Assembly: GCA_040758255.1 (NCBI GenBank)
Contig: JBFLVX010000001.1
Span: 132 to 64,131, forward strand
Origin: Nitrospirota bacterium
GTDB taxonomy: Bacteria; Nitrospirota; Thermodesulfovibrionia; UBA6902
DNA length: 64,000 nt
Reading direction: 5' to 3'
A program made the position numbers and the translations under genes. Shown in pieces: positions 1-48,615 of the stretch. The first letter of the stretch is position 1. Each line of letters opens with the position of its first letter. The notes beneath the pieces are model-generated. The model made no database searches, was not told the DNA's origin, and saw only the letters and a program-made list of their open reading frames with translations.

Positions 1-138
1 CATAATATTGACAAGCTTATAACTATAGCACAAGAGTTATGAAAAAAGATGAGCTAAGATTAAGAGAATATATATTTGTGTTAGTAGAATTTGAGACCCC
101 CAAAAAAGTCGGTTGGAGTTTTCTATATCTCCGTTAGG

Positions 139-321
139 TTATAACTCCCCGCAGTCCTTCCGCACTTGTCGGAACGACTCGTCCCGATATGCGGAAACCA
201 CTCCTTGATACCCGCAGATGGCGCAGAATTCATCAAGAATAACAGCTTTCCCCTTGCGACAGGCTCTCTTGTCCCGTAAGTATATGGCCTCAAGATACCC
301 CCTTTTGGATCGTGAATTCAT
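139..321 (-). CDS. small Cys-containing hypothetical protein (60 aa), possible zinc-ribbon/HNH-like fragment
   Basis: ORF with CxxxxG...CAICGY cysteine pairs; no confident family match; sits in an AT-rich edge region. Confidence 0.2.
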   Translation of the reverse strand: MNSRSKRGYLEAIYLRDKRACRKGKAVILDEFCAICGYQGVVSAYRDESFRQVRKDCGEL

Positions 322-476
322 AATGTTCTCCTTTTAACTGCATGTTTTTTCAGTAACATGCATTATGAGTCAACGATATGTTTTACTTCTACTTGCGGTA
401 ACATTTTTTATGAGGTAGTTTAGATGGCAATTCGTTGTACATTGCTTGATAGCTGATATCTCTTTATAATAAAACA

Positions 477-2063
477 ATGAAGAATATCCTCCGCCGCGCT
501 GCCCGCTCAATAACAGCGAAACTTATAGCCGCCGTAGGCTTGTTGATGATTGCGGGAAGCCTTATATTCTGGTACGCCATTCTGTACAAACAGGAAAAGG
601 ATATCATGTCAATAGCTGTAAAGTACGGCGTCTCTTTTATTGATTTTGTAAAAGAGAGCACACGCTACGGCATGCTCACCCGCCACAGATCAGATATTCA
701 GCAGACTCTTGAAGATATAGATCTGGCGGAAGGCGTTGAGAGGGTGCGTATCTTTGACCATACAGGAAAGATATTCTACTCTACCGATAGGCAGGATATA
801 GGCAATTCAGTGACAAAGACTTCCCTACCATGCAATGGGTGCCATTCAGACATTGAAAAATCATCTCAACTCCTCAAGGAGCCAAAGAAATGGGATAATT
901 ACAAAAAACCTGACGGGGTCACCGCCCTGAAACTCGTTGAGCCTATTTACAATGAGCCTGCCTGTTACACTGCCGACTGTCACGCGCACCGGGAAGGGCA
1001 GAAGATATTAGGCTTTGTAGAGGCTGACGCTTCGCTTGCTCTTCTTGACGAAGCCATGCTAAAACAGGAGTTAGCCGCAGCCGCATACGTGATCGTCTTC
1101 CTGCTGATGCTCTCCATAAGCATAGTTGTCATACTTTGGAAAATAGTCGCTAAGCCTGTCGGTGAGCTTTCTTACGGGATAAAGAAGGTATCCTCCGGAG
1201 ACCTTGATCATTCAGTTCCCGTAAAATCAAGAGATGAGATAGGATTGCTGGCGGCTTCGCTCAATTCCATGATAAAAGATCTGAAAGCTGCAAGGGATCA
1301 GAAGAATACATGGAGGCAGACACTTGAGGCAGAGGTCTCAAAAAAGGCTGAAGAGATACAGAAGACACATTGCGGCTTTTTGCAAACAGAAAAACTCGCA
1401 TCCCTCGGCAGGATGGCATCGGGGATAGCAAACGAGCTTAATATTCCCTTAAAGGAACTACTCGATTCCGCGCATTCATTAAAGAAGCGGCTCCCTTCCG
1501 GAAGCCCTGAGGCGGAAGACGTTGATGTAATAATTGAGCAGGCCGCGAGGGCTGAGAAGATAATAAGCAATTTTCATGACTTTACGAACGCAAAACCGTC
1601 CGAAAAAGGCAGTGTAGATATTTGCGCTCTGCTAAACAGGACAATATTCATCATAAAGAACCAGAAGAAGTTCCGTAATATCAGGATCAATGTTCTCACA
1701 GACGAGATACCTCTCTTTCCCTGCGGCGACCCCTCCCAGTTTCAACAGGTTTTTCTGAATATGCTTGTGAACGCTGCCGATGCCATGAATGAGACGGGTG
1801 AGATAACTGTTGAAATACGCAAAATAACGGAAGATGCGAAATCATATGTTGAAATAAATTTTACAGACACGGGTCCGGGGATAAAGGACGAGGATATGCC
1901 GAGATTATTTGAGCCGTTCTTCACAACCAAATCAACAGGGGAAAACACAGGGCTGGGGCTCTCTGTCAGTCACGGCATTGTCAAGCATCTTGGAGGATAT
2001 ATTAAGGTATTAAGCGAGATTGGCAAAGGCGCTACGTTTTCTGTTAGACTTCCGTTAACTTGA
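477..2063 (+). CDS. sensor histidine kinase: two TM helices flanking a periplasmic domain with a heme-c binding motif, then HAMP, HisKA and HATPase_c
   Basis: TM1 LIAAVGLLMIAGSLIFWYAILY and TM2 VIVFLLMLSISIVVILWKIV. Periplasmic segment contains CNGCH (canonical CXXCH) and CYTADCH (CX4CH variant). HAMP-like DEIGLLAASLNSMIKDL. H-box LASLGRMASGIANELNIPL. G-boxes DTGPGI and GLGLSVSHGIV. Confidence 0.85.
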   Translation: MKNILRRAARSITAKLIAAVGLLMIAGSLIFWYAILYKQEKDIMSIAVKYGVSFIDFVKESTRYGMLTRHRSDIQQTLEDIDLAEGVERVRIFDHTGKIFYSTDRQDIGNSVTKTSLPCNGCHSDIEKSSQLLKEPKKWDNYKKPDGVTALKLVEPIYNEPACYTADCHAHREGQKILGFVEADASLALLDEAMLKQELAAAAYVIVFLLMLSISIVVILWKIVAKPVGELSYGIKKVSSGDLDHSVPVKSRDEIGLLAASLNSMIKDLKAARDQKNTWRQTLEAEVSKKAEEIQKTHCGFLQTEKLASLGRMASGIANELNIPLKELLDSAHSLKKRLPSGSPEAEDVDVIIEQAARAEKIISNFHDFTNAKPSEKGSVDICALLNRTIFIIKNQKKFRNIRINVLTDEIPLFPCGDPSQFQQVFLNMLVNAADAMNETGEITVEIRKITEDAKSYVEINFTDTGPGIKDEDMPRLFEPFFTTKSTGENTGLGLSVSHGIVKHLGGYIKVLSEIGKGATFSVRLPLT

Positions 2064-2173
2064 AGTACAATTAACCACTGAGAGCACGGAGGAGATATAT
2101 TGACAGCAAAAGAGGGAAAGTATTATTTCACCACAGTGGGCACAGAGAAAAAGAATTTTAGATTTTTAAAAAG

Positions 2174-2243
2174 CTCTGCGAACTCTGTAGTTGCTTCTTC
2201 TATGTTTTTTAAAATCAAAACTGTCTCTGTGAACTCTGTGGTT
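2174..2243. promoter_or_regulatory. two copies of a 19-bp direct repeat (ctctgYgaactctgtRgtt) about 50 bp apart, immediately upstream of the HK-like ATPase/DRTGG/PHP operon
   Basis: Seen directly: 2174-2192 ctctgcgaactctgtagtt and 2225-2243 ctctgtgaactctgtggtt, 17/19 identical. They lie between the histidine kinase stop and the start at 2265. Confidence 0.3.
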
Positions 2244-2264
2244 TTATTTTAAGGATTAAGGGAT

Positions 2265-2711
2265 ATGGATATAAACCGGACAATTGAAGGGAGTTTTCAG
2301 CTAATTGGAGGGGAGTTTACTAACGCCGGCGAATCATCAATGCAGCTTAAACAAAAGCTTACAGAGATTGAATTAGGCAGAGACATTATAAAGAAGGCTG
2401 CGATTGTGGCCTTTGAGGCAGAGATGAATGTAATAATTCATGCGGCTGCCGGGTGGCTGCGTTACTATATAACCAAAGATGAATTAAGGATCGTTATAGA
2501 GGATATGGGGCCGGGCATTGCAGATATTGAACTCGCGATGAAGGAGGGCTATTCCACCGCGCCCGAATGGGTAAAAAATATGGGGTGGGGAGCCGGTATG
2601 GGCATGGCAAACATGAAGAGGAATTGCGACGTAATGAGAGTTGATTCGGTTGTCGGAGAAGGAACAACTATTGATATTATTATAAATCTCACTAAAGGAG
2701 AAATTATATGA
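2265..2711 (+). CDS. histidine kinase-like ATPase (anti-sigma regulatory factor / GHKL fold), hydrogenase/NuoEFG-cluster associated type
   Basis: HATPase-like motifs EDMGPGI and VVGEGTTIDIII; small size of 148 aa; overlaps downstream DRTGG gene, so operon. Confidence 0.7.
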   Translation: MDINRTIEGSFQLIGGEFTNAGESSMQLKQKLTEIELGRDIIKKAAIVAFEAEMNVIIHAAAGWLRYYITKDELRIVIEDMGPGIADIELAMKEGYSTAPEWVKNMGWGAGMGMANMKRNCDVMRVDSVVGEGTTIDIIINLTKGEII

Positions 2712-3067
2712 AGCTCCAGGATCTGGCGGATAAATTATTTTTACATGCTGTGTCTTACGATAAAGGTCTCAGTAAAGATGTCTCCGGAGGTTACGTAAGC
2801 GACCTGCTCTCTGATGTGCTCGCAAATTGCGCAGAAGGCAGCGTCTGGATTACACTGCAGAAGCATACGAATATAGTGGCTGTTGCAAGCCTGAAGAACC
2901 TCGCAGGGATAATTATTGTCGGGGGAAGAGAGCTTGAAGAAGAGGTATTAAAGCAGGCCGAGGCTAAGGAAGTCACAATTATGACAACCCCTATGTCCGC
3001 CTTTGAAACAACAGGCATGATCTACCAGCTTCTGAATGAAAACAAAGGGTCTGAAGAAAGTTGCTGA
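2708..3067 (+). CDS. DRTGG domain protein
   Basis: IIIVGGRELEEEVLKQAEAKEVTIMTTPMSAFETTGMIYQL matches the DRTGG signature; 4-bp overlap with the upstream gene. Confidence 0.65.
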   Translation: MKLQDLADKLFLHAVSYDKGLSKDVSGGYVSDLLSDVLANCAEGSVWITLQKHTNIVAVASLKNLAGIIIVGGRELEEEVLKQAEAKEVTIMTTPMSAFETTGMIYQLLNENKGSEESC

Positions 3068-3804
3068 AAGAATTCAGGGCAGACCTGCACATTCACACAT
3101 GCCTCTCCCCATGCGCTGATCTTCATATGACCCCTTCAGCGATAGTGAAGAACGCCTCTGAAAACGGGCTTGATATCATAGCCATAACCGATCACAATTC
3201 AGCGGAGAACATTATTGGAACAAAGAAAGCCGCTGAAGGTGCAGGCTTAACAGTGCTTGCCGGTATGGAAGTCACCTCCTCAGAAGAGGTTCATATATTA
3301 GCGCTCTTCGATGACATAAAAGACGCTTTAAAACTGCAGGACATTGTATATAAACACCTCGCGTCAGACAGAGATTATGACGGCGGATTGGGCGAGCAGG
3401 TGGTGGTCAATGAAAAGGACGAGGTGATGGGTTTTAACAAGCATCTGCTTATAGGCGCAACATCTTTGACCACTCTATCTATTGTTAATATTATACATTC
3501 TCTTGGAGGGCTTTCCATCGCCTCTCATATTGACAGAGAAGGTTTCGGGATAATCTCCAAGCTTGGTTTTATACCGAAGGATTTGAACTTCGACGCTCTT
3601 GAAATATCCCCAAATACAGATAAAGAAAAAGCAGAAGGTTTATTCAGAGATTACAAATCCTTTCAATGGATCTCTTCCTCAGATGCGCATTATATTGAAG
3701 ATATAGGGAAAAGGAGAACAAGCTTCTTCATAAAAGAAGCAACATTAGCGGAAATGAGAGGAGCTTTAAGAAATACCGGCGGCAGAAGAGTTGAATGGGA
3801 ATAA
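3061..3804 (+). CDS. PHP-domain (polymerase/histidinol phosphatase-like) metal-dependent phosphoesterase
   Basis: N-terminal ADLHIHTCLSPCADLHMTPSAIVKNASENGLDIIAITDHNS with HxH and DH metal ligands typical of PHP domains. Confidence 0.75.
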   Translation: MLKEFRADLHIHTCLSPCADLHMTPSAIVKNASENGLDIIAITDHNSAENIIGTKKAAEGAGLTVLAGMEVTSSEEVHILALFDDIKDALKLQDIVYKHLASDRDYDGGLGEQVVVNEKDEVMGFNKHLLIGATSLTTLSIVNIIHSLGGLSIASHIDREGFGIISKLGFIPKDLNFDALEISPNTDKEKAEGLFRDYKSFQWISSSDAHYIEDIGKRRTSFFIKEATLAEMRGALRNTGGRRVEWE

Positions 3805-3948
3805 AAGAGACTTTATCAGGGCAGAGACCAAGTGCTTTTCAGCATTACAGAGAAAAATTTGAACTATTTCTTCTAAGTAAACGCCCTAAATGATAGACAT
3901 TGATTGCAATGGACAATCCCCTGATACAATATGCCGGGGAGAGGAAAA

Positions 3949-5556
3949 TTATCCGCCCTTCTTCCAGTAAGGGCTTGAGATATCTTCAAACACAGTAAGC
4001 GCTGCGACCGCTCCCTGCGAAACAGCGGTAACGATCTGCTTGACCCCTCCGGTGATATCCCCCGCTGCATATACAAGGGGCATGGATGTCCTCATGTGCC
4101 CGTCAACTTTCACATAACCTTCTTCGTCAAGTTCCAGCCCGATTTTCTTCGCTAAATCGTTATTGGGTTCATAACCTATTGCTATAAAAACGCCCTGTGC
4201 CGCCATATCCCTCTTATTCCCCGTTATTATGTCTTCAATCGTGACTTTTTCAACAACCGTTTTACCGTGGATTTCCTTCACAACACTGTTAAACAGAACA
4301 GGTATGTTCCTCTGAAACACACTCTGTTGAAGTCTCTCTTCAGCCCTGAAAGTATCTCTGCGGTGCACTAATGTCACATGCGCGCCGAGGCTGTCAAGAT
4401 AAAGGGCATCGGTCAAAGCGCTGTTCCCTCCGCCAACAACAATGACGTTCTTCCCGTCCTTAAAAAGGTATCCGTCACATGTAGCGCAATAGCTGACTCC
4501 CCTGCCCGCAAGGCTGGTCTCACCTGACGCATTGAGCGTCCTGCTGCCAGCGCCGGTTGCTATGATAATCGCCCTGGCATTGTATATTCCCCTTCCCGTA
4601 GCTACTTCAAAACCGTCTTTCTTTTTCTTTATCTCACTTACCCCGACTCCCTGAAGAAGGAGAGAGTATTCCAGTGTCTGTTTTACCATCATATCAACAA
4701 GCGTCCTGCCCGCGATCCTTGCAAAGCCGGGGTAATTTTCAACTACCGGGGTTATTGATATCTGCCCCCCGGCATTCGCGCTTTCAAACACTATGCTCTT
4801 AAGTCCGCTCCTCTCCGCGTACATGGCGGCTGTGAGTCCCGCGGGGCCTCCACCGATCACAACAATATCGTAATCCCTGAGATCCTGCCTTCCGGCGGGC
4901 ATGACATACTCTACGGGTTTTCCTTCAACTATGGACTCTATGAAATAATCCTCAGGGAGGAGCCCCGGCGCAATCAGTGTTTCACCGACAAAAGTTTTAG
5001 GAACGGACATAGCAGCATATTTTTCAGCAAGGTCCAAGTTCTCATAAATCTCAATAATCTCAACCGAAACCATATCTTTCTTCTCTATTACTGCCGATAC
5101 CGCATAGAGCACCTGCTGCGGACAGTAAGGACAGGTAGGGCTGACAAAGACGCGGACCTTCCTTTTTTCTGTAAGCCTCTCAAGCCGCTTTCTTGAATCA
5201 TCCGAAATAAAGTTCCTCCCCGTTGACGCCATTATTAAAGAGAGGACAAATGAACCGGCCTCTTCGCCTGCGGGAGCTCCGGTATAACGAATATTGTACT
5301 TATCAGGCGCTATAAGGATTGTAGGAGACCTTTCAATCCCGCGCTTCCTGGCGTGATCGTCCTTGAGCCTGTAAAAGTTCACCTTGATCTTGTCCGTAAG
5401 CTCGGGCATGACTTTCAGCAGGCTCACCGCAGCTTCATTGAACGGCTCATTCATACCCGCCTGAGTATAGACCTCGATCAGGACAGTATCTTTAAGCTGT
5501 TTAAACGCCTCACGCAGCGACCTCTTAATGTCTTCGTTGATAAGCTCTTTTTCCAT
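3949..5556 (-). CDS. AhpF-like NAD(P)H disulfide oxidoreductase: N-terminal thioredoxin/glutaredoxin-fold domain fused to a thioredoxin-reductase-like FAD/NAD(P) domain
   Basis: N-terminal CPYCP redox motif; FAD GxGxxG (IVVIGGGPAGLTAA); second dinucleotide fold VIVVGGGNSALTDA; redox-active CATCDG disulfide typical of TrxB/AhpF. Confidence 0.8.
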   Translation of the reverse strand: MEKELINEDIKRSLREAFKQLKDTVLIEVYTQAGMNEPFNEAAVSLLKVMPELTDKIKVNFYRLKDDHARKRGIERSPTILIAPDKYNIRYTGAPAGEEAGSFVLSLIMASTGRNFISDDSRKRLERLTEKRKVRVFVSPTCPYCPQQVLYAVSAVIEKKDMVSVEIIEIYENLDLAEKYAAMSVPKTFVGETLIAPGLLPEDYFIESIVEGKPVEYVMPAGRQDLRDYDIVVIGGGPAGLTAAMYAERSGLKSIVFESANAGGQISITPVVENYPGFARIAGRTLVDMMVKQTLEYSLLLQGVGVSEIKKKKDGFEVATGRGIYNARAIIIATGAGSRTLNASGETSLAGRGVSYCATCDGYLFKDGKNVIVVGGGNSALTDALYLDSLGAHVTLVHRRDTFRAEERLQQSVFQRNIPVLFNSVVKEIHGKTVVEKVTIEDIITGNKRDMAAQGVFIAIGYEPNNDLAKKIGLELDEEGYVKVDGHMRTSMPLVYAAGDITGGVKQIVTAVSQGAVAALTVFEDISSPYWKKGG

Positions 5557-5644
5557 AAGTACTATTTTATCAAAAATATCCGTAATCCTGCGTTATTCAC
5601 AGCGCAACTGTTTTTCAATGGCAGGGGAGAGATGATAAGCAAAA

Positions 5645-5674
5645 AAGGGGAATAAACCGTGGTTTATTCCCCTT
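5645..5674 (-). terminator. intrinsic-terminator-like hairpin (about 13-bp GC-containing stem followed by U-rich tract on the minus strand) inside the 5' leader of the AhpF-like gene
   Basis: Seen directly: AAGGGGAATAAACC / GGTTTATTCCCCTT perfect inverted repeat, followed on the minus strand by TTTTGCTTATC. It sits about 90 nt upstream of the ATG at 5556 with no upstream minus-strand gene to terminate. Confidence 0.45.
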
Positions 5675-5909
5675 GCGTAACATACAAGTTGCCTATTAAC
5701 TATTTGTTACGGTATCACCTCAAAGGCGTCAAGGTCTATTAAATTTATTTGAAATTTTGCAGTTAATAAAAAATAGTGTTATAAAAATAGCATAGCTCTA
5801 TATGTATTTTGTCAACAAATATTTACCAAAAAAATTAAAATAAAAGTCAACAGGGTTGCGTCTTGAATCGTGCGTGACTAATTATAAAAATTTGGACTGC
5901 ATTAAATTT

Positions 5910-6461
5910 ATGGAAGACCTGTCCCTTCACATCCTTGACATCGTAGAAAACTCGATAACCGCAGGAGCTGCAAATATACGGATAAAGATCAATGAAGATA
6001 CCGGAGAGAACCTTCTTCTTATAGAGATAAGCGATAATGGCAAAGGCATGGATGAGGAGATGCTTAAAAATGCCCTCGACCCTTTTCATACCACAAGGAC
6101 AACCCGCAACGTAGGGCTCGGCATCCCCTTTCTTGCGGATGCGGCAAGGGATACCGGCGGGGATATTGCCATAAAGTCTGTGAAGGGAGAAGGCACAACC
6201 ATTACCGCAACTTTCCGGCATGATCATATTGACAGAAAGCCTCTTGGAGATATTGGGAAGACCCTGATAGTAATTATCGCCTCCAACCCTGACATTGATA
6301 TTCTCTTTGAGTATAAAAAAAACAATTCTGAATATATGCTGGATACGGCAGAGATAAAGAAGGATCTGGACGGCGTCCCGATAAATACGCCGGGGGTAAT
6401 AAAGGCTATTGAAAATGATTTAAAAGAATGGTTTAATAGTACCAACCTTATGATAAAATAG
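5910..6461 (+). CDS. second histidine kinase-like ATPase (GHKL fold) of the cluster
   Basis: LHILDIVENSITAGA N-box-like, DNGKGMD, GLGIPF, VKGEGTTITATF G-boxes. The supplied ORF starts at a TTG at 5856; the ATG at 5910 is the more likely start. Confidence 0.65.
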   Translation: MEDLSLHILDIVENSITAGAANIRIKINEDTGENLLLIEISDNGKGMDEEMLKNALDPFHTTRTTRNVGLGIPFLADAARDTGGDIAIKSVKGEGTTITATFRHDHIDRKPLGDIGKTLIVIIASNPDIDILFEYKKNNSEYMLDTAEIKKDLDGVPINTPGVIKAIENDLKEWFNSTNLMIK

Positions 6462-6526: not shown

Positions 6527-7294
6527 ATGGAAAAACAGCGCATCTTAGTGCTTGATGACGACCCTGTTGTAACCCTGAGCTGCAAGAGGATTCTCAGCTC
6601 CGAGGGCTTCATCATCTCCACAGTGGAAAAAGGAGAAGACGCCCTCAATAAATTAGCTAAAGAGGATTTTGACCTCTTAATAACCGATGTAAAACTTCCC
6701 GATATAAGCGGGATGGAGGTCCTTAAAGAGGCTCGCATAATAAAGCCAAATACGGATGTGGTGATAATTACCGGCTATCCTAACCTTGAAGACGCAAAGG
6801 AATCAACAGGGCTCGGAGCCGCTGAATACATAGAGAAACCATTTACTCCTGACTTCATGATAAATGTCGCAAAGAAGGTCTTTGACAAGAGGGGATGGAT
6901 ACTCAGGCAGGCGTTTGTTGATGAATTCAGGGACTCTGTCGTATCGTTAAGGGACAGGGAAAATCCGGTCCTCTTTTATAAAGAAGGCACATGGTCAAGG
7001 CCCATTAAGGGCGGATTATGGGAGATGGGATGCGACCTCAGGTATTGGCTTCTGAGCGGGGAGCTTGCGTATGTTGATTTTATAAAAGGCGTTGATGAAC
7101 TGAAAGCCGGAGAACCGTTTGCAAGGATCTACACAAGCGCCGGACAATCCAATGAACTGCTTTCGCCTATGAGCGCAGAGATCAGAGAAGTGAATGTAAA
7201 AGCAAATGATGTCATGACCGCCCTGCTTAAAGAGCATTTGTCGGAAGGGTGGTTATTGTGGCTGGCAAGGGTATTTCCAAAAGGTAACGATTAA
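6527..7294 (+). CDS. response-regulator receiver domain fused to a glycine-cleavage-H-like (GcvH-fold) domain that lacks the lipoyl-lysine
   Basis: REC motifs: LVLDDDPVV, phospho-acceptor D in DLLITDVKLP, KP in IEKPF. The C-terminal 120 aa align by eye to GcvH (Y.KE..W, VDF..G..L.AGEP.A.I.S..........P.S.EI.EVN, GWLLWLA) but have SAGQS where the lipoylated K sits. Confidence 0.7.
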   Translation: MEKQRILVLDDDPVVTLSCKRILSSEGFIISTVEKGEDALNKLAKEDFDLLITDVKLPDISGMEVLKEARIIKPNTDVVIITGYPNLEDAKESTGLGAAEYIEKPFTPDFMINVAKKVFDKRGWILRQAFVDEFRDSVVSLRDRENPVLFYKEGTWSRPIKGGLWEMGCDLRYWLLSGELAYVDFIKGVDELKAGEPFARIYTSAGQSNELLSPMSAEIREVNVKANDVMTALLKEHLSEGWLLWLARVFPKGND

Positions 7295-7531
7295 TCTTGT
7301 CCTTTAGCATTAATTGATACCTTGAATTTAACCCGGATAATGCAGATATTGCTCAATAACTTGTTTAACTCGATGATTTTTTTATTTGATTATTATATTA
7401 TGCATATGGCGTTAATTAAAAATATGCGCTGTTATAAAGATTAAATTCGATTAAGGTATCGAAAAACAAGTTCTTTCCCAACATCTGCATTATCTTAAAT
7501 GCTTTGATTTGGGAATTATACTGGAAGAACT

Positions 7532-8401
7532 ATGGCGGATAACGGGAAGATACTCGTTGTAGATGATGAACCGATAGTATTAAGGAGCTGTGAGAGGATA
7601 CTGAAATCGGAAGGGTACAGTATCGCCCTCGCCGCAGGCGGGCAGGAGGCGATAAATATCCTTCAAAAGGACGATTACGATCTGGTGATCACTGACCTGA
7701 AGATGCCTGAAGTTGACGGCATTGACTTGATAAAATGGCTGAGAAACTCAAAGCCGGCAACCGGGGTAGTTGTCATAACCGGCCATCCCTCGCAGGAGAC
7801 CATTAAAGATGCGCTTAATTTAGGCATAATTGACTACCTGCCGAAACCCTTTACCCCTCCGGTGCTTATAGATGTCACTGCAAAGGCCATGAAGATTACA
7901 ATGGTCAGGGCCTTGCCGGAAAAGACTCCTGAAGAGGATGAAGTTGAATCTAAGACCGCTGATCTTGAGAAGATCATAGCTGCAAACCGTAACAGGCCCG
8001 GAAGCCTTATCCCTGTTTTGCAGAAGGCTCAGGAGTTGATAGGATATCTCCCGCCGTCCGTTCAGAGGCATATAGCAAAAGGCCTGAATATTCCGGTCAG
8101 CGAAGTGCACGGCGTTGTCTCTTTCTATTCATTCTTCACAATGAAACCAAAAGGCAGGCATAGCGTAAAGGTTTGCCTTGGAACAGCCTGCTACGTAAAG
8201 AGGGCTGAAGAGATAATCGAAAAATTAAAAGCTACATTAAATATAAATGTCGGCGAGGTTACAAAAGACAGGAGATTCTCTCTTGAGAGTGTCAGGTGTC
8301 TCGGTGCATGCGGGCTGGCGCCAGTGGTCGTGATTGATCATGATACGCATGCATCTGTTGACCCTGTAAAGACTCCGGAGATACTTAAAGAATATGATTA
8401 A
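7532..8401 (+). CDS. response-regulator receiver domain fused to a NuoE/HoxE-like thioredoxin-fold [2Fe-2S] subunit (HndA-like)
   Basis: REC: VVDDEPIV, DLVITDLKMP, LPKPF. C-terminus: CLGTACYVKRAEEI ... VRCLGACGLAPVV, the four-Cys pattern of the 24-kDa NuoE family. Confidence 0.8.
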   Translation: MADNGKILVVDDEPIVLRSCERILKSEGYSIALAAGGQEAINILQKDDYDLVITDLKMPEVDGIDLIKWLRNSKPATGVVVITGHPSQETIKDALNLGIIDYLPKPFTPPVLIDVTAKAMKITMVRALPEKTPEEDEVESKTADLEKIIAANRNRPGSLIPVLQKAQELIGYLPPSVQRHIAKGLNIPVSEVHGVVSFYSFFTMKPKGRHSVKVCLGTACYVKRAEEIIEKLKATLNINVGEVTKDRRFSLESVRCLGACGLAPVVVIDHDTHASVDPVKTPEILKEYD

Positions 8402-8428
8402 CTTTTTGGCCTCATCAACACCAGGAGT

Positions 8429-8818
8429 TTGACAATGGCAAGATTAAAGATAGAAGATCTGCAAAGAATCAAGGATGAGCATAAGGCAGCTTCCACATTA
8501 AGAGAGGGCGGCTTCAGGGTAAAGATCACAGTGCACATGGGCACATGCGGCCTCGCGGCAGGAGCAAGAAATATAATGAGCGCATTGCTGGATGAGATTG
8601 AAAAGAGCGGCGTCACCGATGTCATTGCAACAACCTCGGGCTGCGCAGGGCTCTGCAGCCGCGAACCGATGGCAACAATAGAGGTAATCAACCAGCCGCC
8701 GGTCAAGTATGGATCTTTAACAGAGGATAAGATACGCAGAATATTTAAAGAGCATATTATCGGCGGGAATATTATTGAGGAATATGCGCTTGTTATAGGG
8801 AGCGAAACAGCGTATTAA
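8429..8818 (+). CDS. small thioredoxin-like [2Fe-2S] ferredoxin (HndB-like)
   Basis: VHMGTCGLAAGA ... TSGCAGLCSREP cysteine arrangement of NuoE-like 2Fe-2S domains; 129 aa; positioned between NuoE-like and NuoF-like genes as in hnd/hyd operons. Confidence 0.7.
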   Translation: MTMARLKIEDLQRIKDEHKAASTLREGGFRVKITVHMGTCGLAAGARNIMSALLDEIEKSGVTDVIATTSGCAGLCSREPMATIEVINQPPVKYGSLTEDKIRRIFKEHIIGGNIIEEYALVIGSETAY

Positions 8819-8890
8819 TAAGTTTTTAGTTGTTAGTTTTTAGTCAAAAAACTGAAAACAGACAACTAACAACTGAGTAAAAGAGGGAAT

Positions 8891-10723
8891 ATGCAGAAAT
8901 ATCGCGCAAATTTAATGATGTGTGCAGGGACAGGTTGTGTTGCCTGCGGCGCTCTTAAGATAAAAGACGCGCTTAAGGCAGAGCTTAAGGCCAAAAACCT
9001 TGAGGATGAAATCCAGATAGTCCTCACAGGCTGTAACGGCTTTTGCTCCAACGGCCCTATTATGGCTGTATTTCCCGACGGCATCTTCTATCAAAAGCTC
9101 AAACCTGAAGATATCCCTCTTCTTGTTGAAGAGCACCTCTTAAAAGGCCGGCCTGTGGAAAAATTTATGTATCAGGAGCCGGAGAAGAAGACCAAGGTGC
9201 CTGCGATGAAGGATATCCCTTTCTTCAACCTCCAGGTTTTAAGAGCGCTTAGAAATAAAGGGATGATAGACCCTGAGAAGATAGAGGACTACATTGCAAG
9301 AGACGGGTATCAGGCAGCGGCAAAGGCGCTCTTGCATATGACATCAGAAGAAATTGTAAAAGAGATAAAGGATTCAGGTATCAGAGGCAGGGGAGGCGCG
9401 GGTTTCCCGACAGGGCTGAAGTGGGAGTTCTGCTCAAAAGTTAAGTCGGACATTAAGTATATCCTCTGCAACGGCGACGAAGGCGACCCCGGAGCATTTA
9501 TGGACAGGAGCGTTATGGAGGCAGACCCTCATGTTGTGTTAGAGGGGATGATCATCGGAGCAAAGGCGATCGGGGCGACTATGGGTTATATATATGTGAG
9601 GGCAGAGTACCCCCTTGCTGTCAAGAGGCTCCAGATCGCGATTGATCAGGCAAAGGAAGCCGGGCTTCTTGGAGAGAACATTCTTGACAGCGGCTTCAGC
9701 CTGAATATAGAGATATATGAAGGAGCAGGAGCATTTGTATGCGGTGAGGAGACCGCGCTCATGCGTTCAATTGAGGGCAAGCGCGGTATGCCGAGACCAA
9801 GGCCGCCCTTCCCTGCTGTTAAAGGCCTGTGGGACAAACCTACAGTGCTTAACAATGTTGAGACATTCGCAAATATACCGCCCATAATCCTTAACGGAGC
9901 GGAGTGGTTCAGGAGTCTCGGCACCGAAAAGAGCACGGGCACAAAGGTCTTTGCGCTCACCGGAGCTGTAAATAATATCGGCCTTATAGAAGTGCCTATG
10001 GGCATACCTTTAAGGACTATCATATATGACATCGGCGGGGGGATTAAGAACAACAGAAAATTCAAGGCTGTTCAGCTTGGAGGGCCATCCGGCGGATGCA
10101 TACCTGAAAGCCTCCTCGACACACCTGTAGATTATGAATCAATCAATGCAACAGGCGCCATTGTAGGCTCCGGCGGCATGGTTGTCATGGACGATTCAAA
10201 CTGCATGGTAGGCATGGCAAAATTCTTCCTTGAGTTTACCGCTGAGGAGTCATGCGGAAAATGTCCGCCGTGCAGAGTGGGAACAAAGGTGATGCTTGAT
10301 ATGCTGACCGAAATTTCAGAAGGCAGGGGGAAAGAAGGGGATATGGAACTGCTTCAGGACCTTTCAGCAGACATTATCAACACCTCTCTTTGCGGCCTTG
10401 GGCAGACCGCTCCAAACCCTGTGCTTACAACGATAAAGTACTTCAGGGATGAGTATGAATCGCACATCAAGGATAAATGGTGCAAAGCCGGAGTATGTAA
10501 AACACTAACGACATTTTATATAGATGAAGCACTGTGCAAAGGATGCGGGCTCTGCTTAAGGGCGTGCCCCAAAGGCGCAATCACAGGGGAGAAGAAGCAG
10601 CCGCATAAGATAGATAACGAGCTATGCATCAAGTGCCGCTCGTGTTATGTGGCCTGCCCCGTGAAATTCGGCGCGGTAAAGATTGGCCCGGGGAATATGA
10701 CGGTTGCGGCGGAGAGTAAATAA
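8891..10723 (+). CDS. NuoF-like NAD(P)H-binding flavoprotein subunit (HndC/HydB/FdhB type) with N-terminal 2Fe-2S domain and C-terminal 2x[4Fe-4S] ferredoxin domain
   Basis: FMN site GRGGAGFPTGLKW, NADH site GEETALM, N3 cluster ESCGKCPPCR, C-terminal CKGCGLCLRACP and CIKCRSCYVACP, N-terminal CAGTGC...C NuoE-like domain. Confidence 0.9.
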   Translation: MQKYRANLMMCAGTGCVACGALKIKDALKAELKAKNLEDEIQIVLTGCNGFCSNGPIMAVFPDGIFYQKLKPEDIPLLVEEHLLKGRPVEKFMYQEPEKKTKVPAMKDIPFFNLQVLRALRNKGMIDPEKIEDYIARDGYQAAAKALLHMTSEEIVKEIKDSGIRGRGGAGFPTGLKWEFCSKVKSDIKYILCNGDEGDPGAFMDRSVMEADPHVVLEGMIIGAKAIGATMGYIYVRAEYPLAVKRLQIAIDQAKEAGLLGENILDSGFSLNIEIYEGAGAFVCGEETALMRSIEGKRGMPRPRPPFPAVKGLWDKPTVLNNVETFANIPPIILNGAEWFRSLGTEKSTGTKVFALTGAVNNIGLIEVPMGIPLRTIIYDIGGGIKNNRKFKAVQLGGPSGGCIPESLLDTPVDYESINATGAIVGSGGMVVMDDSNCMVGMAKFFLEFTAEESCGKCPPCRVGTKVMLDMLTEISEGRGKEGDMELLQDLSADIINTSLCGLGQTAPNPVLTTIKYFRDEYESHIKDKWCKAGVCKTLTTFYIDEALCKGCGLCLRACPKGAITGEKKQPHKIDNELCIKCRSCYVACPVKFGAVKIGPGNMTVAAESK

Positions 10724-10726
10724 TAT

Positions 10727-13177
10727 ATGATAACGCTCACTATAAACGGTAAAAAGGTTGTTGTTACAGAAGGCACCACGATCCTTGAGGCAGCCCTGCA
10801 GAACGGGATCGAGATCCCAAACCTCTGCTATGACAAGCGCCTCTCACCTTACGGCGCGTGCCGCCTCTGTGTTGTTGAGGTCGAGGGGCAGAAGAAGCTG
10901 CTGGCAGCATGTTCAACGCCGGTAACAGAGGGGATGGAGGTTAAGACAGAGACGCCGAAACTCTTCAAGGCGAGACAGACCGTGCTTGAGCTTCTTCTTG
11001 TCCACCACCCTCTTGACTGCCCCGTATGCGATAAGGCAGGGGAATGCAAGCTTCAGGACCTTGCGTTCAAGTACTGTTCCACCAAGAGCCGCTTTAAGGG
11101 AGAGAAGAAGCATGAGCTTGTTGACACTGGCAGCCCGATTGTAGAGAGAAACCCGAACAGGTGCATACTCTGCGGCAAGTGCGTAAGGGTCTGCGGCGAA
11201 TTACAGGGGGTAGGAGCCATAAACCTCCTGGGACGCGGCTTCGCCTCAAAGATAAGCCCTGCATTTGAAGAGACTCTTGACTGCGAATTCTGCGGCCAGT
11301 GTATAGACGCGTGCCCTGTCGGCGCGCTTGGCAGCAAGCCTTATAAATACAGCTCAAGGGCCTGGTTCCTTGAAGCGCATGACAACATCTGCCCCTACTG
11401 CGGTGTCGGATGCACTGTAACATATGACATCAGGGAAGGGAAGATAATCAGGGCAAAGGGAATAGAAGGCAGGGGAATAAACGAGGGCAACTTATGCGTT
11501 AAGGGAAGGTTCGGTTTTGATTACATCTACTCGAAGAACCGCCTGAAGACCCCGCTGATAAAAGAAGGCGACGGTTTTAAGAGCGTATCTTGGGAAGAGG
11601 CGCTGAACCATATCGCCAGGAAACTCAAGGCGATCAAAGATGCGCATGGCGCTGACGCGATCGGAGCGATAGGCTCTCCAAGATGCACGGTTGAAGACAA
11701 CTTCATGCTGAGGAAGTTTATGAAAGATGTAATCGGAAGCGACAATATAGATTCTTCATCAAGGTTCGGATACGCGAAGATACAGCGTGCCGTTGAGATG
11801 GCGTTCGGGCTTGAATCCCTGCCTGTAGATTTTAACTCTCCAATTGGGAAAGAAGCGATTCTGATAATAGAGTCCGACATCACCTCAACCCATCCTGTCT
11901 GGGGATTAAATTTCCTGAAGGCACAACGCAAAGGTTCATTCCTTATTACAGCAGACACCCGCGAGACAAAACTCACGCGGCACAGCAGCCGATGGCTCAG
12001 GCTGAAGCCCGGAACCGGGGCTGCGCTTATTAACGGGATCATAAAGATAGCCCTTGATGAGGGGCTGTATGATAAAGAGAAGGCCTCACATATTCCGGGA
12101 CTCTCTTTTCTCTCTGACAGCGTAAAAGAATACACCTCGAAAAAGGTTTCAGATATCACCGGCATTGCAGAAGATGTTTTCGTCAATACTGCGAAGAGAT
12201 TTCTCACTGCAGGCTCAAGGCTTATTGCGCTTACAATAGGGGCTGCTGAAGATACAAAGGGGCTGAATACAGCTCTTGCCGCAGCCAACCTGCTCCTGCT
12301 TATAGGTGAAGGGCCTGCGAGCATTCAGATGCCCGCTGAATACTGCAATACCTTTGGTATGTGGCACAAAGGATTGAGGCAGGGAAGATCAGGCAGGGAT
12401 ATTATATCCATGCTTTACGGTGAGGATACGGTCAAAGCTTTATATATTATGGGAGAGAACCCCGCTGTCACATTCCCTGACGCAACAACTATTGATAAAA
12501 CCCTTCGCGGCCTCGACTTTCTTGTTGTGCAGGATATAATGCTTACAGAGACCGCCAAGCTGGCAGACGTGGTGCTTCCTGCCGCAAGCTGGGCGGAAAA
12601 AGAGGGGACATTTATCTGCGCTGAGGGCATTGAACAGAAGGTGCAGAAGATAAGCCAGACCGAAGGAGAGCCTGTGCCTGACTGGCAAATTTTGAGAAAC
12701 CTCTCAAGGGCTATGGGTTTTGAGGTCGGGGCAAAGAACATAACAGCTCTTCAGGATGAGATAAATGAGATAAAGACCGAAGAGAGAACCGCTGAGACGA
12801 TCTTCAACCCAGTTGAATATATCCCCGGAGAAGAGCCGGATGCCGATTACCCTCTTGTGATGATAACAGGCAACCTCATGCAGCATTCAGGGGCGTTATC
12901 AGTCATGTCCCGGAGCCTGAGCCATGTGCTTGCAGATGCGTTTCTTCAGATAAGTAACGCTGACGCTGAAAAATACAATGTCCGCGATGAAGGCTTTGTG
13001 AAGGTAACTTCAAGAAGAGGCTCTGTTATGGTAAAGGCAAGGCTCTCCGATGAAGTGCCTGAAGGCAGCGTCTTCCTTCCAATTCATTTCCCGCATGCAA
13101 AGATAAATACGCTTACGCGCTTGTCCTTGAACGGCGAAGCGCCGCTCAGCGCTGTAAAGATTGAAGCGGTGAAGTAA
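10727..13177 (+). CDS. NuoG-like Fe-S / molybdopterin-oxidoreductase-fold subunit; catalytic Cys/Sec-His of formate dehydrogenases not present
   Basis: N-terminal 2Fe-2S (CYDKRLSPYGACRLC), His-ligated cluster HHPLDCPVCDKAGECKLQ, CILCGKCVRVCGE and CEFCGQCIDACPVG, Mo-domain 4Fe-4S CPYCGVGCTV. At the position of FdhF ARVUHGPS it has SRFGYAKI. C-terminal molybdopterin_binding-like domain present. Confidence 0.85.
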   Translation: MITLTINGKKVVVTEGTTILEAALQNGIEIPNLCYDKRLSPYGACRLCVVEVEGQKKLLAACSTPVTEGMEVKTETPKLFKARQTVLELLLVHHPLDCPVCDKAGECKLQDLAFKYCSTKSRFKGEKKHELVDTGSPIVERNPNRCILCGKCVRVCGELQGVGAINLLGRGFASKISPAFEETLDCEFCGQCIDACPVGALGSKPYKYSSRAWFLEAHDNICPYCGVGCTVTYDIREGKIIRAKGIEGRGINEGNLCVKGRFGFDYIYSKNRLKTPLIKEGDGFKSVSWEEALNHIARKLKAIKDAHGADAIGAIGSPRCTVEDNFMLRKFMKDVIGSDNIDSSSRFGYAKIQRAVEMAFGLESLPVDFNSPIGKEAILIIESDITSTHPVWGLNFLKAQRKGSFLITADTRETKLTRHSSRWLRLKPGTGAALINGIIKIALDEGLYDKEKASHIPGLSFLSDSVKEYTSKKVSDITGIAEDVFVNTAKRFLTAGSRLIALTIGAAEDTKGLNTALAAANLLLLIGEGPASIQMPAEYCNTFGMWHKGLRQGRSGRDIISMLYGEDTVKALYIMGENPAVTFPDATTIDKTLRGLDFLVVQDIMLTETAKLADVVLPAASWAEKEGTFICAEGIEQKVQKISQTEGEPVPDWQILRNLSRAMGFEVGAKNITALQDEINEIKTEERTAETIFNPVEYIPGEEPDADYPLVMITGNLMQHSGALSVMSRSLSHVLADAFLQISNADAEKYNVRDEGFVKVTSRRGSVMVKARLSDEVPEGSVFLPIHFPHAKINTLTRLSLNGEAPLSAVKIEAVK

Positions 13178-21035: not shown

Positions 21036-21374
21036 CTATTTACCGCTAGCTGCCAGCGCATTCAATCTCTTCAATGTGTCGGGGAATTTTCTGACAAGCA
21101 GAATCAAGGCCGCGGCCTGCATATTAGGTTTTGAGCTGCCCTGCTCCCACTTTTCAAGCGTGCGGGGAGATACGCATAACTGATGGGCGAAGACAGACCT
21201 TGAAAGGCGCAGTTTATCACGCACTTCGCGGATTATTTCAGGTGTAACGGCAGGCTTATATTCTTTACCGACCTTGTATTCGCGCAAGGTTATCTTGCCT
21301 TTACGGTGTTGCCTTATTTCTTCAATCCCTGTTTTCAATTCCTGAAATAAATTTCTCTTTTTCATGCGTTCCAC
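21036..21374 (-). CDS. XRE-family helix-turn-helix antitoxin (HigA-like) of a type II TA pair
   Basis: HTH segment LSRSVFAHQLCVSPRTLEKWEQG; 112 aa; overlaps the upstream toxin gene by 13 bp in toxin-first order. Confidence 0.7.
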   Translation of the reverse strand: MERMKKRNLFQELKTGIEEIRQHRKGKITLREYKVGKEYKPAVTPEIIREVRDKLRLSRSVFAHQLCVSPRTLEKWEQGSSKPNMQAAALILLVRKFPDTLKRLNALAASGK

Positions 21375-26036: not shown

Positions 26037-26039
26037 GGT

Positions 26040-48128: not shown

Positions 48129-48137
48129 ATAAAAAGG

Positions 48138-48509: not shown

Positions 48510-48615
48510 TACTAATGCTCCTCATATTCATGATTATATCCAATGTTACGGCTCTCAACAATTTAAATAAATGTCGTATTATAGCCTTTAAAATAAAAAA
48601 ATGTATATATAAAAA

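Follow-up and report, generated by a model that had tools for sequence, protein, structure and literature searches.

The window, a stretch of 64,000 nucleotides analysed at its full length, carries an operon that is conserved in Nitrospirota and that is an NADH-and-ferredoxin electron-transfer module with fused signal-receiver domains (Table 1). Judged from their sequences, the products of 7532-13177 would assemble into a soluble BfuABC-type (HydABC, "Hnd-like") flavo-iron-sulfur complex, and we put at roughly one half the probability that this Bfu-type module is under two-component control with complex I as its most likely partner. The Bfu-type module itself is already known; its receiver fusions appear to be undescribed. 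A preliminary description of this DNA had correctly placed the module at 6527-13177 and had left out the regulatory genes at 477-6461; the system reaches upstream to 477 and includes genes for a kinase and for HATPase_c_2, DRTGG, PHP and HATPase_c proteins.

Table 1. Genes and sequence motifs of the module and its upstream region (window coordinates)
Feature	Position	Strand	Basis
Sensor histidine-kinase-like membrane protein, 528 aa	477..2063	+	Pfam HAMP, HisKA (weak), HATPase_c
Small RsbW-like ATPase (HATPase_c_2), 148 aa	2265..2711	+	Pfam
DRTGG-domain protein, 119 aa	2708..3067	+	Pfam, synteny
PHP-family phosphoesterase, 247 aa	3061..3804	+	Pfam, synteny
Stand-alone GHKL ATPase, ~183 aa from ATG 5910	5910..6461	+	Pfam
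RECX (REC + weak GcvH-like domain), 255 aa	6527..7294	+	Pfam
Receiver-NuoE fusion (BfuC/HydC-type; HoxE-type 2Fe-2S domain), 289 aa	7532..8401	+	Pfam, PDB matches
HndB-like thioredoxin-fold protein, 129 aa	8429..8818	+	Weak Pfam and NCBIfam matches
Long NuoF (BfuB/HydB-type), 610 aa	8891..10723	+	Pfam, PDB match, NJ tree
NuoG/FdsA-like subunit (BfuA), 816 aa	10727..13177	+	Pfam, NCBIfam, PDB alignment, AF2, Foldseek
SRFGYAKI, Gly348-Tyr349 at FDH Sec/Cys-His position	11759..11782	+	Alignment, translation
QMPAEYCNTFG, Ala537 at FDH catalytic Arg position	12326..12358	+	Alignment

According to Pfam, the long NuoF has a [2Fe-2S] domain at its N terminus and a ferredoxin-like 2x[4Fe-4S] domain at its C terminus, together with the FMN/NADH site and an N3-type [4Fe-4S] cluster. 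A PDB search aligned it end to end with solved bifurcating B subunits (E~1e-258 to 1e-212), the best full-length matches being NiFe-HydB (7t2r_B, E about 1e-257) and HydB (7q4v_B), whereas canonical NuoF aligns with it only over residues ~128-530; the extra N- and C-terminal clusters are the defining mark of a bifurcating BfuB subunit. The best PDB matches of NuoE are HydC of bifurcating hydrogenases (E~1e-41), and these too extend over the full length. In the NuoE fusion, the receiver (residues 5-118) is followed by a variable acidic linker and a thioredoxin-like [2Fe-2S] domain, of which Cys215 and Cys220 are invariant in 121 sequences, while Cys256 and Cys260 are present in 120. Homologue alignments show all Fe-S ligands of the core subunits to be invariant. 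The HndB-like protein, which is paralogous to the domain at the N terminus of NuoF, had been labelled a small 2Fe-2S ferredoxin, a label we abandon because only three Cys (40, 72, 76), plus His36, are invariant in its 36 homologues. Phylogeny nests the window NuoF in a clade with NuoF of "Nuo-Bfu" complex-I operons (neighbour-joining tree, no bootstrap).

The 816-aa G subunit contains 2Fe-2S, NuoG 4Fe-4S, Fer4_Nqo3, Molybdop_Fe4S4, Molybdopterin and Molydop_binding domains (Pfam) and the ligands, invariant across homologues, of a 2Fe-2S cluster, a His-ligated 4Fe-4S cluster (H94-C98-C101-C107), two 4Fe-4S clusters and an N7/FS0-type 4Fe-4S cluster. It had been predicted to be non-catalytic unless alignment revealed an intact Cys/Sec-His site; alignment revealed Gly348-Tyr349 instead, and none of the three FDH residues (Cys/Sec, His, Arg) is present. 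Using phmmer against R. capsulatus-type FdsA, "dsssRfGYak" lies opposite "dtcaRvCHsp", pairing GY with CH, and the Cys of FdsA is therefore replaced by Gly348 and its His by Tyr349; the FDH arginine motif "PLRGQNNVQG" becomes "QMPAEYCNTFG", with Ala537 for Arg. Selenocysteine-FDH relatives have an in-frame TGA at the alignment column of Gly348. The replaced motifs are themselves highly conserved (R-F-G-Y-A-K and Q-x-P-A-E-[FY]-x-N-T-x-G), Gly348 being invariant in 121 homologues, and the R-x-G-[FY]-A motif of the window protein recurs in the canonical NuoG of complex I from this phylum. The window protein keeps a fraction of 0.56 of the FDH-invariant columns, compared with 0.58 for canonical NuoG and 0.97 for FDHs; the NCBIfam NuoG model is passed (474.5 bits, cutoff 470) and the FDH-alpha model failed (447 bits, cutoff 666). 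All nearest sister clusters are non-catalytic (neighbour-joining tree, no bootstrap), the pterin-fold domains of the AF2 model have pLDDT >90, and Foldseek gives matches to FdsA and NuoG. Given the invariance of Gly348, the motif of canonical NuoG and the non-catalytic sister clusters, the inactivity of the pterin site is, on sequence evidence, old and usual for the NuoG lineage, not a peculiarity of the window operon. The subunit would be a NuoG-type wire of five Fe-S clusters with the molybdopterin-fold domain as a non-catalytic scaffold, for which the inactive FdhF-like domain of StnC offers a precedent (PMC10482914).

Both receiver domains retain all phospho-acceptor residues: the invariant D10/D11, D54, T82 and K104 in RECX, and D11, D12, D55, Y102 and K105 in NuoE, these last invariant in 121 sequences, with T83 present in 117. 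The preliminary description spoke of fused receiver domains; NuoE has one, but the receiver of RECX (Pfam Response_reg, 1.5e-25) is joined to no electron-transfer domain and is followed by a GcvH-like domain (GCV_H, 0.002; all 35 family members match, the best at 2e-7). Over 120 clusters, identity of RECX runs from 77 to 96%, and Gly206 is invariant at what we take to be the lipoyl-lysine position, from a manual register against the E. coli GcvH sequence. The kinase is arranged as TM1, extracytoplasmic domain, TM2, HAMP, HisKA-like region and HATPase_c, and its extracytoplasmic motifs CNGCH (residues 119-123) and CYTADCH (163-169) correspond to CxxCH and Cx4CH motifs kept in 20 of 20 aligned homologues. 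The H-box His is present in 18 of these 20 homologues; in the window kinase (GIANELNIPL) Asn319 replaces the phospho-acceptor His, as confirmed by the codon AAC, and among three further relatives one has Asn like the window (L083, in our numbering of related loci) and two have His (L084, L085). Direct phosphorylation control, as suggested earlier, is plausible for the family, whose receiver residues are kept, but the H-box Asn makes the window kinase a doubtful phosphodonor. In the family, a dedicated phosphorelay would control the activity or docking of the module, the membrane kinase, with its probable di-haem-c extracytoplasmic sensor domain, phosphorylating the NuoE-fused receiver and RECX. 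Most related loci keep the HATPase_c_2 gene together with the module. The GHKL ATPase (mechanical ORF start TTG 5856) consists of HATPase_c without HisKA, and its homologues, of 179-191 aa, are immediate 5' neighbours of RECX or NuoE, both in related loci and within Nuo-Bfu operons; the HATPase_c_2, DRTGG, PHP and HATPase_c proteins may be an inheritance from ancestral Bfu operons.

For the redox chemistry we infer a bifurcating module, in which the long NuoF would bind FMN and NAD(H) and NuoE would supply the BfuC [2Fe-2S] cluster; given these roles and that of G, the complex would couple NADH and ferredoxin to a third partner in redox chemistry that is not encoded by the operon. Respiratory complex I, through its quinone/membrane part, would most likely be this partner, and the module would serve as a separate input arm of the "Nuo-Bfu" kind in place of canonical NuoEFG, carrying electrons from NADH and reduced ferredoxin to menaquinone, or the reverse. 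The earlier statement that the window contains neither an H-cluster motif nor a catalytic partner was confirmed: six-frame regex searches of the window found no H-cluster motif, no Sec/Cys-His FDH motif and only two NiFe-like RxCGxC matches, both in stop-interrupted frames, tblastn and Pfam searches of the rest of the 64 kb turned up no gene for Nuo subunits, GltD, FDH or hydrogenase, no FdhD occurs in the window, and the 476 bp preceding the kinase gene contain no nuoA start. The partner had been thought to be elsewhere or absent; it is not in the window, and comparative synteny and the NuoF tree now indicate a likely one.

Linkage to nuo takes three different gene arrangements among related loci. 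Four loci (L068, L063, L065, L071) have the order nuoABCD-[DRTGG, HATP2, DRTGG, PHP, HATPase_c]-NuoE-HndB-long NuoF-NuoG-nuoH onwards, to nuoN where the locus is long enough (verified by Pfam on L068), and their NuoF is 71-72% identical to that of the window and nested in the module clade; in L067 the HndB-NuoF-NuoG-nuoHIJ part is seen. A full canonical nuoA-N operon is divergent from the module kinase gene in L006, L016/L053, L019, L020, L023, L043, L058, L074/L061 and L085, and the same arrangement is viewed from the nuo side in L055-57, L059, L060, L062 and L064. In L014, 71 bp separate the end of the module from nuoA, which follows in the same orientation. In known enzymes the N5/A3-type His-ligated cluster, invariant in the window family, passes electrons to NuoI or HydS, and the occurrence of "Nuo-Bfu" in Nitrospirae has been predicted (Schut et al., PMC9304861). 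About half of the long-flank related loci have no neighbouring nuo operon (for example L001, L002, L007, L012, L030, L033, L083 and L084), and since adjacent nuo operons already encode a NuoEFG, the module would have to displace this or compete with it; adjacency could alternatively reflect shared regulation or common descent. The window G, as the subunit that would touch the Q-module, is only 38-39% identical to in-operon Nuo-Bfu G, which also lacks the C-terminal domain; homology thus argues strongly for complex I where E, HndB and F are concerned, and weakly in the case of G.

Another partner is possible, if rather unlikely: a GltD/NfnB-like NADPH unit, making a split Stn/NfnABC-type NADH/ferredoxin:NADP transhydrogenase, or a separate catalytic FDH or other oxidoreductase, feeding the dead G subunit as in Type-3 Bfu. 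A GltD-like gene (Fer4_20 + Pyr_redox_2) does lie between RECX and REC-NuoE in L024, L028 and L029, and L024 also has a GltD-like domain fused to the NuoF C-terminus; the 816-aa protein matches PDB entries 8oh5_C and 9bov_A, and in StnC a GltD part is joined to an FdhF-like NuoG domain that has no catalytic activity (PMC10482914). For the FDH, L042 has a true enzyme (CH + RGQNNVQG) adjoining NuoE-HndB-NuoF (72% identical) and a dead G, and Type-3 Fdh-Bfu enzymes whose pterin sits in an additional subunit have been described (Schut et al., PMC9304861). However, the window has none of these genes, GltD-bearing variants make up 3 of ~45 module loci, and nuo linkage is far commoner. It is also improbable that the module works alone, as a non-bifurcating NADH:ferredoxin oxidoreductase or as a redox sensor reading the NADH/ferredoxin state and signalling it via the receivers and the HATPase/DRTGG/PHP proteins without any third substrate. 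Such a role would suit the lack of a partner in cis in the window and many relatives, an operon unusually dense in signalling proteins and a RECX more conserved than the redox subunits, but a five-cluster G with an invariant His-ligated exit cluster under strong selection makes little sense unless electrons are passed on, the transfer from NADH to ferredoxin is endergonic by itself (PMC9304861), and receivers normally take in signals rather than send them.

Highly improbable, finally, is a working Mo/W enzyme, an FDH or one for a new substrate, with an unconventional active site that has no Cys/Sec ligand; the operon would then encode a Type-1 Bfu enzyme in full. In the DMSO-reductase family, Mo has no protein ligand in some members, arsenite oxidase among them, the pterin fold including Molydop_binding is fully retained and models confidently, the replacement motifs are very conserved, and one subclade (L002, L004, L005, L007, L018) has FdhD ~1.7 kb downstream of the G gene. 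The window, by contrast, has no FdhD, and the loss of Cys/Sec, His and Arg together, the loss of FDH-invariant positions to the extent seen in cofactor-less NuoG, the sharing of the motif with canonical complex-I NuoG and the outcome of the two NCBIfam models all argue against catalysis.

Compared with known systems, the gene order of the window module is similar to that of hndABC and hydBC with a D-type subunit added, a resemblance pointed out earlier and borne out by ORFs and domains. The module is built on the plan of the input arm of respiratory complex I, and the Nuo-Bfu of sister lineages has the same NuoE/HndB/NuoF core placed inside nuo operons.

As the preliminary description had proposed, an Hnd-like NuoE-NuoF-NuoG module with a receiver fusion is encoded by five closely packed ORFs on the forward strand (Table), the domains of which were assigned using Pfam and NCBIfam. 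Of the receiver-domain fusions announced with it, that of REC-NuoE is a fusion to an electron-transfer subunit; the receiver of the other protein, for which we coined the name RECX, is joined to a weak GcvH-like domain instead. The system extends beyond 6527-13177, upstream to a sensor kinase, and the upstream regulatory genes accompany the module in most related loci.

Table. Position of the module, of its upstream genes and of other regions in the window
Feature	Position	Strand	Assigned with
HAMP sensor kinase	477-2063	+	
HATPase_c_2	2265-2711	+	
DRTGG	2708-3067	+	
PHP	3061-3804	+	
Thioredoxin-reductase/AhpF-like gene with N-terminal thioredoxin-fold domain, between PHP and HATPase_c	3949-5556	-	
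Stand-alone HATPase_c	about 5910-6461	+	
RECX: receiver and weak GcvH-like domain	6527-7294	+	Pfam, NCBIfam
REC-NuoE: receiver fused to NuoE/HoxE-type thioredoxin-like [2Fe-2S] domain	7532-8401	+	Pfam, NCBIfam
Small HndB-like protein	8429-8818	+	Pfam, NCBIfam
NuoF, 610 aa, extra N-terminal 2Fe-2S domain and C-terminal 2x[4Fe-4S] domain	8891-10723	+	Pfam, NCBIfam
G subunit, 816 aa, full NuoG/FdsA domain series	10727-13177	+	Pfam, NCBIfam
RelE-like toxin and HTH/MqsA-like antitoxin	21036-21679	-	
HNH_2 endonuclease gene, adjoining the toxin-antitoxin pair	22099-22893	-	
AddAB-type helicase-nuclease genes, after the HNH_2 gene	22947-28676		
Two very large overlapping ORFs, 1397 aa (weak HEAT_2 match only) and 1808 aa (no Pfam match)	30188-39788	-	
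821-aa protein without Pfam match, then 1087-aa protein with two CapC-like regions, stand-alone receiver (123 aa) and 896-aa HATPase_c-containing protein	42416-51306	-	

Bfu-type enzymes are central in anaerobic energy conservation. In this family, BfuB combines the NuoF FMN domain, SLBB, the NuoF 4Fe-4S domain and a 4Fe-4S ferredoxin-type domain, BfuC is a NuoE-type [2Fe-2S] protein and BfuA has at least one 2Fe-2S and one 4Fe-4S ferredoxin-type domain (Schut et al. 2022); all these domains were found in the window NuoF, REC-NuoE and G subunit, respectively. In NuoF, Complex1_51K and NADH_4Fe-4S score above the Pfam cutoffs, together with 2Fe-2S_thioredx at the N-terminus and two Fer4 at the C-terminus, and the SLBB match lies under its cutoff (22.7 bits versus 27). 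The full-length best match of NuoF is NiFe-HydB 7t2r (E=1e-257), followed by HydB, StnB and NfnB, all from solved bifurcating enzymes; canonical complex-I NuoF aligns to its core only. REC-NuoE matches HydC best and has four conserved Cys in its [2Fe-2S] domain. By sequence, NuoF and NuoE correspond to a BfuBC core in the terms of Schut et al. 2022 (PMC9304861). The HndB-like protein has three invariant Cys (40, 72 and 76), an invariant His36 and an invariant Gly at the position expected for a fourth Cys, and cluster binding is only putative.

The last subunit had been predicted to be non-catalytic, and formal alignment with solved NAD-dependent formate dehydrogenases around the SeCys site bears this out. 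Formate dehydrogenases have a catalytic Sec/Cys ligand followed by His, plus a conserved Arg (U140, H141 and R333 in FdhF); in the G subunit Gly348-Tyr349 stand opposite the Cys-His pair (window 11759-11782 translates as SRFGYAKI), the arginine motif PLRGQNNVQG reads QMPAEYCNTFG and Ala537 occupies the Arg position. The in-frame TGA of relatives that are selenocysteine formate dehydrogenases falls at the alignment position of Gly348, which confirms the register. According to NCBIfam, the protein passes the NuoG model TIGR01973 (474.5 bits, cutoff 470.05) and fails the formate dehydrogenase alpha model TIGR01591 (447 bits, cutoff 666). Its Fe-S ligands are invariant, including those of the His-ligated N5/A3-type cluster, and in the AF2 model the pterin fold is confident, with matches to FdsA and NuoG, and the Fe-S N-terminus poorly modelled.

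Homologues of the G subunit (58-93% identity) come nearly all from Nitrospirota/Thermodesulfovibrionia MAGs and collapse into about two clusters at 50% identity. All 121 sequences have Gly348, and the replaced motifs around it are strongly conserved; the R-x-G-[FY]-A motif recurs in canonical NuoG encoded by complete nuo operons within the phylum, and the nearest neighbours of the family in a Neighbor-Joining (NJ) tree are all non-catalytic. On these grounds the dead site represents the ancestral NuoG-type state, and the reading as a recently inactivated formate dehydrogenase is rejected. These homologues are annotated variously as "NuoG", "formate dehydrogenase alpha" or "molybdopterin oxidoreductase", and metabolic reconstructions that count the G subunit as a formate dehydrogenase are wrong.

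The 1405-aa top representative, P0121, considered as a possible Rosetta-stone fusion, consists of two tandem NuoG-like genes called as a single protein and contains no fusion to a catalytic partner; tandem NuoG-like pairs exist in some relatives, and at locus L010 (13-378) a C-terminal NuoG-like fragment lies upstream of NuoF, which together suggest local duplication of the G subunit. FdhD usually serves in formate dehydrogenase cofactor insertion; in one subclade (L002, L004, L005, L007 and L018), a FdhD-family gene is located about 1.7 kb downstream of the dead NuoG-like gene, with a PAS/GAF protein between the two in L002. As to a bis-pyranopterin (Mo/W-bisPGD) cofactor, which the G subunit might bind, the fold is retained and FdhD is close by in this one subclade, and formate dehydrogenase-invariant positions are kept (56%) much as in canonical NuoG, which is cofactor-less.

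A catalytic partner had been thought to be elsewhere or absent, which stands for the 64 kb analysed with Pfam, tblastn and motif searches. As already noted from the sequence, the H-cluster motifs TSCCP, MPCxxK and ExMACxxGCxxGG do not occur in any frame of the whole 64 kb, nor does a Sec/Cys-His motif, and NiFe-like matches are confined to frames broken by stops. No nuo, GltD, formate dehydrogenase or hydrogenase gene was detected by Pfam and tblastn among the other window ORFs; the window thus offers neither NuoA-D and NuoH-N nor the GltD/NfnB-like FAD-NADPH unit of Stn/NfnABC, and no nuoA start was found in the 476 bp upstream of the kinase (window 1-476). The other ORFs are unrelated (AddAB, MnmG, protease, KsgA, a toxin-antitoxin pair, cell-wall, phosphate transport and others). 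The 1397- and 1808-aa ORFs are followed by a fragment of DUF1016_N, by a DUF6602 gene and, at 40-42 kb, by a patch of low GC (0.385), and this whole region may be a defence or mobile island.

In species-representative genomes, a scan gave 80 loci (L-numbers below), annotated by BLAST against the module and a Pfam-verified nuo operon. Four Nitrospirota loci (L063, L065, L068 and L071) have the order nuoABCD-[DRTGG, HATP2, DRTGG, PHP, HATPase_c]-NuoE-HndB-long NuoF-NuoG-nuoH onwards, and L067, also from Nitrospirota, has the HndB-NuoF-NuoG-nuoHIJ stretch. This gene content is that of the Nuo-Bfu complex I that Schut et al. predicted, here together with the accessory genes of the module. Their NuoF proteins are 71-72% identical to that of the window and fall within the module clade (NJ tree). 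In other genomes, a complete canonical nuoA-N operon is divergent from the module kinase (L006, L016/L053, L019, L020, L023, L043, L058, L074/L061 and L085, and, found from the nuo side, L055-57, L059, L060, L062 and L064); these operons carry their own short NuoE/F and a NuoG of about 855 aa. In L014, nuoA lies on the strand of the module, 71 bp downstream of its end. No nuo neighbour is present in about half of the loci with long flanks. The three arrangements, in lineages with a G subunit 52-72% identical to that of the window, argue for a functional link between module and complex I; shared ancestry or shared regulation is the alternative explanation of the adjacency.

The same core is also found in other company. 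A GltD/NfnB-like gene lies inside the module in L024, L028 and L029, with another one fused to NuoF in L024, which by analogy would give these variants a Stn/NfnABC-like logic. In L042 (327-9195), a true formate dehydrogenase alpha (897 aa, with CH and RGQNNVQG) is encoded directly upstream of NuoE-HndB-NuoF (72% identity to that of the window) and a dead 892-aa NuoG-like protein; this locus represents a Type-3 Fdh-Bfu with the core of the module. The NuoE/HndB/NuoF core thus seems to behave as a plug-in module, and the partner of the window copy is not readable from the window. In four Desulfobacterota or Bacteroidales MAG loci (L041, L045, L066 and L077), a G of formate dehydrogenase type, in which the Sec position is an in-frame TGA and His and RGQNNVQG are intact, occupies the E/F/G position of a nuo operon, preceded in L041, L066 and L077 by a GltD-like protein of about 650 aa, in the order nuoABCD-(GltD-like)-FdhA(Sec)-nuoH-N; the arrangement suggests an operon of complex-I type, the input arm of which is an apparently catalytic formate dehydrogenase.

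The extracytoplasmic domain of the window kinase contains CNGCH and CYTADCH, and the conservation of CxxCH and Cx4CH in 20/20 aligned homologues suggests a putative di-haem-c redox sensor. Direct phosphorylation control, as first supposed, is plausible for the family: the acidic pocket, phospho-acceptor Asp, Thr/Ser and Lys are present in both receiver domains (RECX: D10, D11, D54, T82 and K104, invariant; REC-NuoE, over 121 sequences: D11, D12, D55, Y102 and K105, invariant, and T83, kept in 117). In the window, however, the H-box of the adjacent kinase (GIANELNIPL) has Asn319 (codon AAC) instead of the phospho-acceptor His. The His is found in 18 of the 20 aligned homologues and in L084 and L085, and Asn in the window, L030 and L083. 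The phosphodonor in the window organism is uncertain on account of this substitution; the second signalling set at 42416-51306 could in principle be a source of phosphoryl groups. The three loci with an Asn kinase have neither an adjoining nuo operon nor a stand-alone receiver gene after the kinase.

RECX is 77-96% identical over 120 clusters, a conservation above that of the redox subunits, and its C-terminal domain matches GCV_H in 35/35 members. Its invariant Gly206 is presumably at the lipoyl-Lys position, according to a manual register against the E. coli GcvH sequence. The AF2 model is poor (pLDDT 52, shallow alignment), and a profile search of the PDB matched the receiver domain only. 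Both receivers have a Cys in helix alpha-1, within the motif S-C-[KE]-R-I-L (Cys19 in RECX, kept in 35/35 homologues; Cys20 in REC-NuoE, kept in 120/121), which could be redox-sensitive. Matches to a sigma-54 promoter near the operon do not exceed chance frequency. The AhpF/TrxR-like gene at 3949-5556 was set aside as probably unrelated; no such insertion was seen at the PHP-HATPase_c position of the related loci examined, and the "AhpF" matches inside other modules are in fact GltD-like proteins.

We favour, with a probability of about one half, a two-component-controlled Bfu-type NuoE/HndB/NuoF/NuoG-like complex that links NADH and ferredoxin with a partner from outside, for which the Q-module of complex I is the likeliest candidate. 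Thermodesulfovibrio genomes encode 11-subunit Nuo complexes without NuoEFG (PMC5165239), which would provide a docking place for an orphan input arm. The partner might instead be another, unlinked third-substrate subunit, as the GltD/NfnB-like genes of L024, L028 and L029 and the separate intact formate dehydrogenase of L042 illustrate; we consider this possible, at clearly lower odds than complex I. A stand-alone oxidoreductase or sensor is rather unlikely. An unconventional active molybdoenzyme seems very improbable: Sec/Cys, His and Arg are all replaced and, over 96 pterin-part columns at least 90% conserved among 27 true formate dehydrogenases, the G family of the module retains 56%, canonical NuoG 58% and the G of Nuo-Bfu operons 55%.

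A further-reaching reading, which we regard as doubtful, is that the favoured complex serves Thermodesulfovibrionia as an exchangeable input arm for complex I under the control of phosphorylation. The sensor kinase, with its di-haem-c domain, would respond to the redox state of the periplasm and pass phosphoryl groups to the NuoE receiver and the receiver-GcvH-like adaptor; phosphorylation would dock or release the bifurcating NADH and ferredoxin module on the Q-module in place of canonical NuoEFG; and complex I would change from one mode to the other, NADH:menaquinone or (NADH + reduced ferredoxin):menaquinone, or alternatively run in reverse, so that CO2 fixation is supplied with reduced ferredoxin. 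Should the module dock on complex I, it would be the first swappable complex-I input arm under two-component control, and would explain the NADH/ferredoxin/menaquinone balance in sulfate-reducing or sulfur-disproportionating Nitrospirota; if it does not, it is still a tractable case of post-translational control of an electron-bifurcating enzyme. In the literature searched, we found no description of a receiver fused directly to an electron-transfer subunit, and nothing specific on DRTGG/PHP with hydrogenases or on Thermodesulfovibrionia energy metabolism.

Among known systems, the Nuo-Bfu, a predicted complex I in which BfuABC replaces NuoEFG (BfuB clades 38/39, including Nitrospirae; PMC9304861), resembles the module in having a NuoF of the long BfuB type, a NuoE of the BfuC type and an A subunit of NuoG type that is non-catalytic. 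In the five in-operon loci, E, HndB and F are 54-72% identical to those of the window, and the operons also include the DRTGG, HATPase_c_2, PHP and HATPase_c genes known from the window. By contrast, the module lies outside any nuo operon, in relatives beside one having its own NuoEFG, its G (816 aa, 38% identity, Molydop_binding domain present) comes from another NuoG-like lineage, its NuoE bears a receiver and it includes the extra receiver-GcvH-like protein. To our knowledge, no Nuo-Bfu has been characterised biochemically. The family of the module presents one BfuBC core in two settings, within nuo operons and as a cassette that is detached from a complete nuo operon but next to it, and adds the receiver-NuoE fusion and a receiver-GcvH-like protein more conserved than the enzyme subunits.

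HydABC/HndABCD and NiFe-HydABCSL (PDB 7q4v, 8a6t, 7p5h and 7t2r) have the same order of NuoE-like, HndB-like, NuoF-like and A/D subunits, as the preliminary description had recognised for hndABCD/hydABC, with B and C subunits showing very strong, near full-length similarity to those of the module. HydA residues 1-205 match the N-terminal Fe-S part of the G subunit and the similarity stops at about 205. The module has neither H-cluster domain or motifs nor NiFe subunits, the pterin-fold domain at the end of its A subunit is dead, and it carries receiver fusions. StnABC/NfnABC (PDB 8oh5, 9bov and 9n5u; PMC10482914, PMC11829005) also join a BfuBC core to a NuoG-like subunit, and the FdhF-like domain of StnC, catalytically inactive and structural, is a precedent in a Bfu complex (PMC10482914); however, Stn fuses a GltD unit to the NuoG-like protein, whereas nothing GltD-like, gene or domain, occurs in the window. 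FdsA of FdsABG/Type-1 Fdh-Bfu is the best sequence and fold match of the G subunit (E~1e-127, 9wxb_B/6tg9_A; Foldseek TM~0.73), with like domain order and Fe-S clusters, but the G subunit lacks the catalytic Cys/Sec, His and Arg and scores below the Fdh-alpha cutoff. With canonical NuoEFG, finally, the module has in common the TIGR01973 assignment of G, the R-x-G-[FY]-A motif and all cluster ligands, and it differs by the extra Bfu-type N- and C-terminal cluster domains of NuoF, by the extra HndB-like protein and by an identity of 33-47% to E, F and G of the same phylum.
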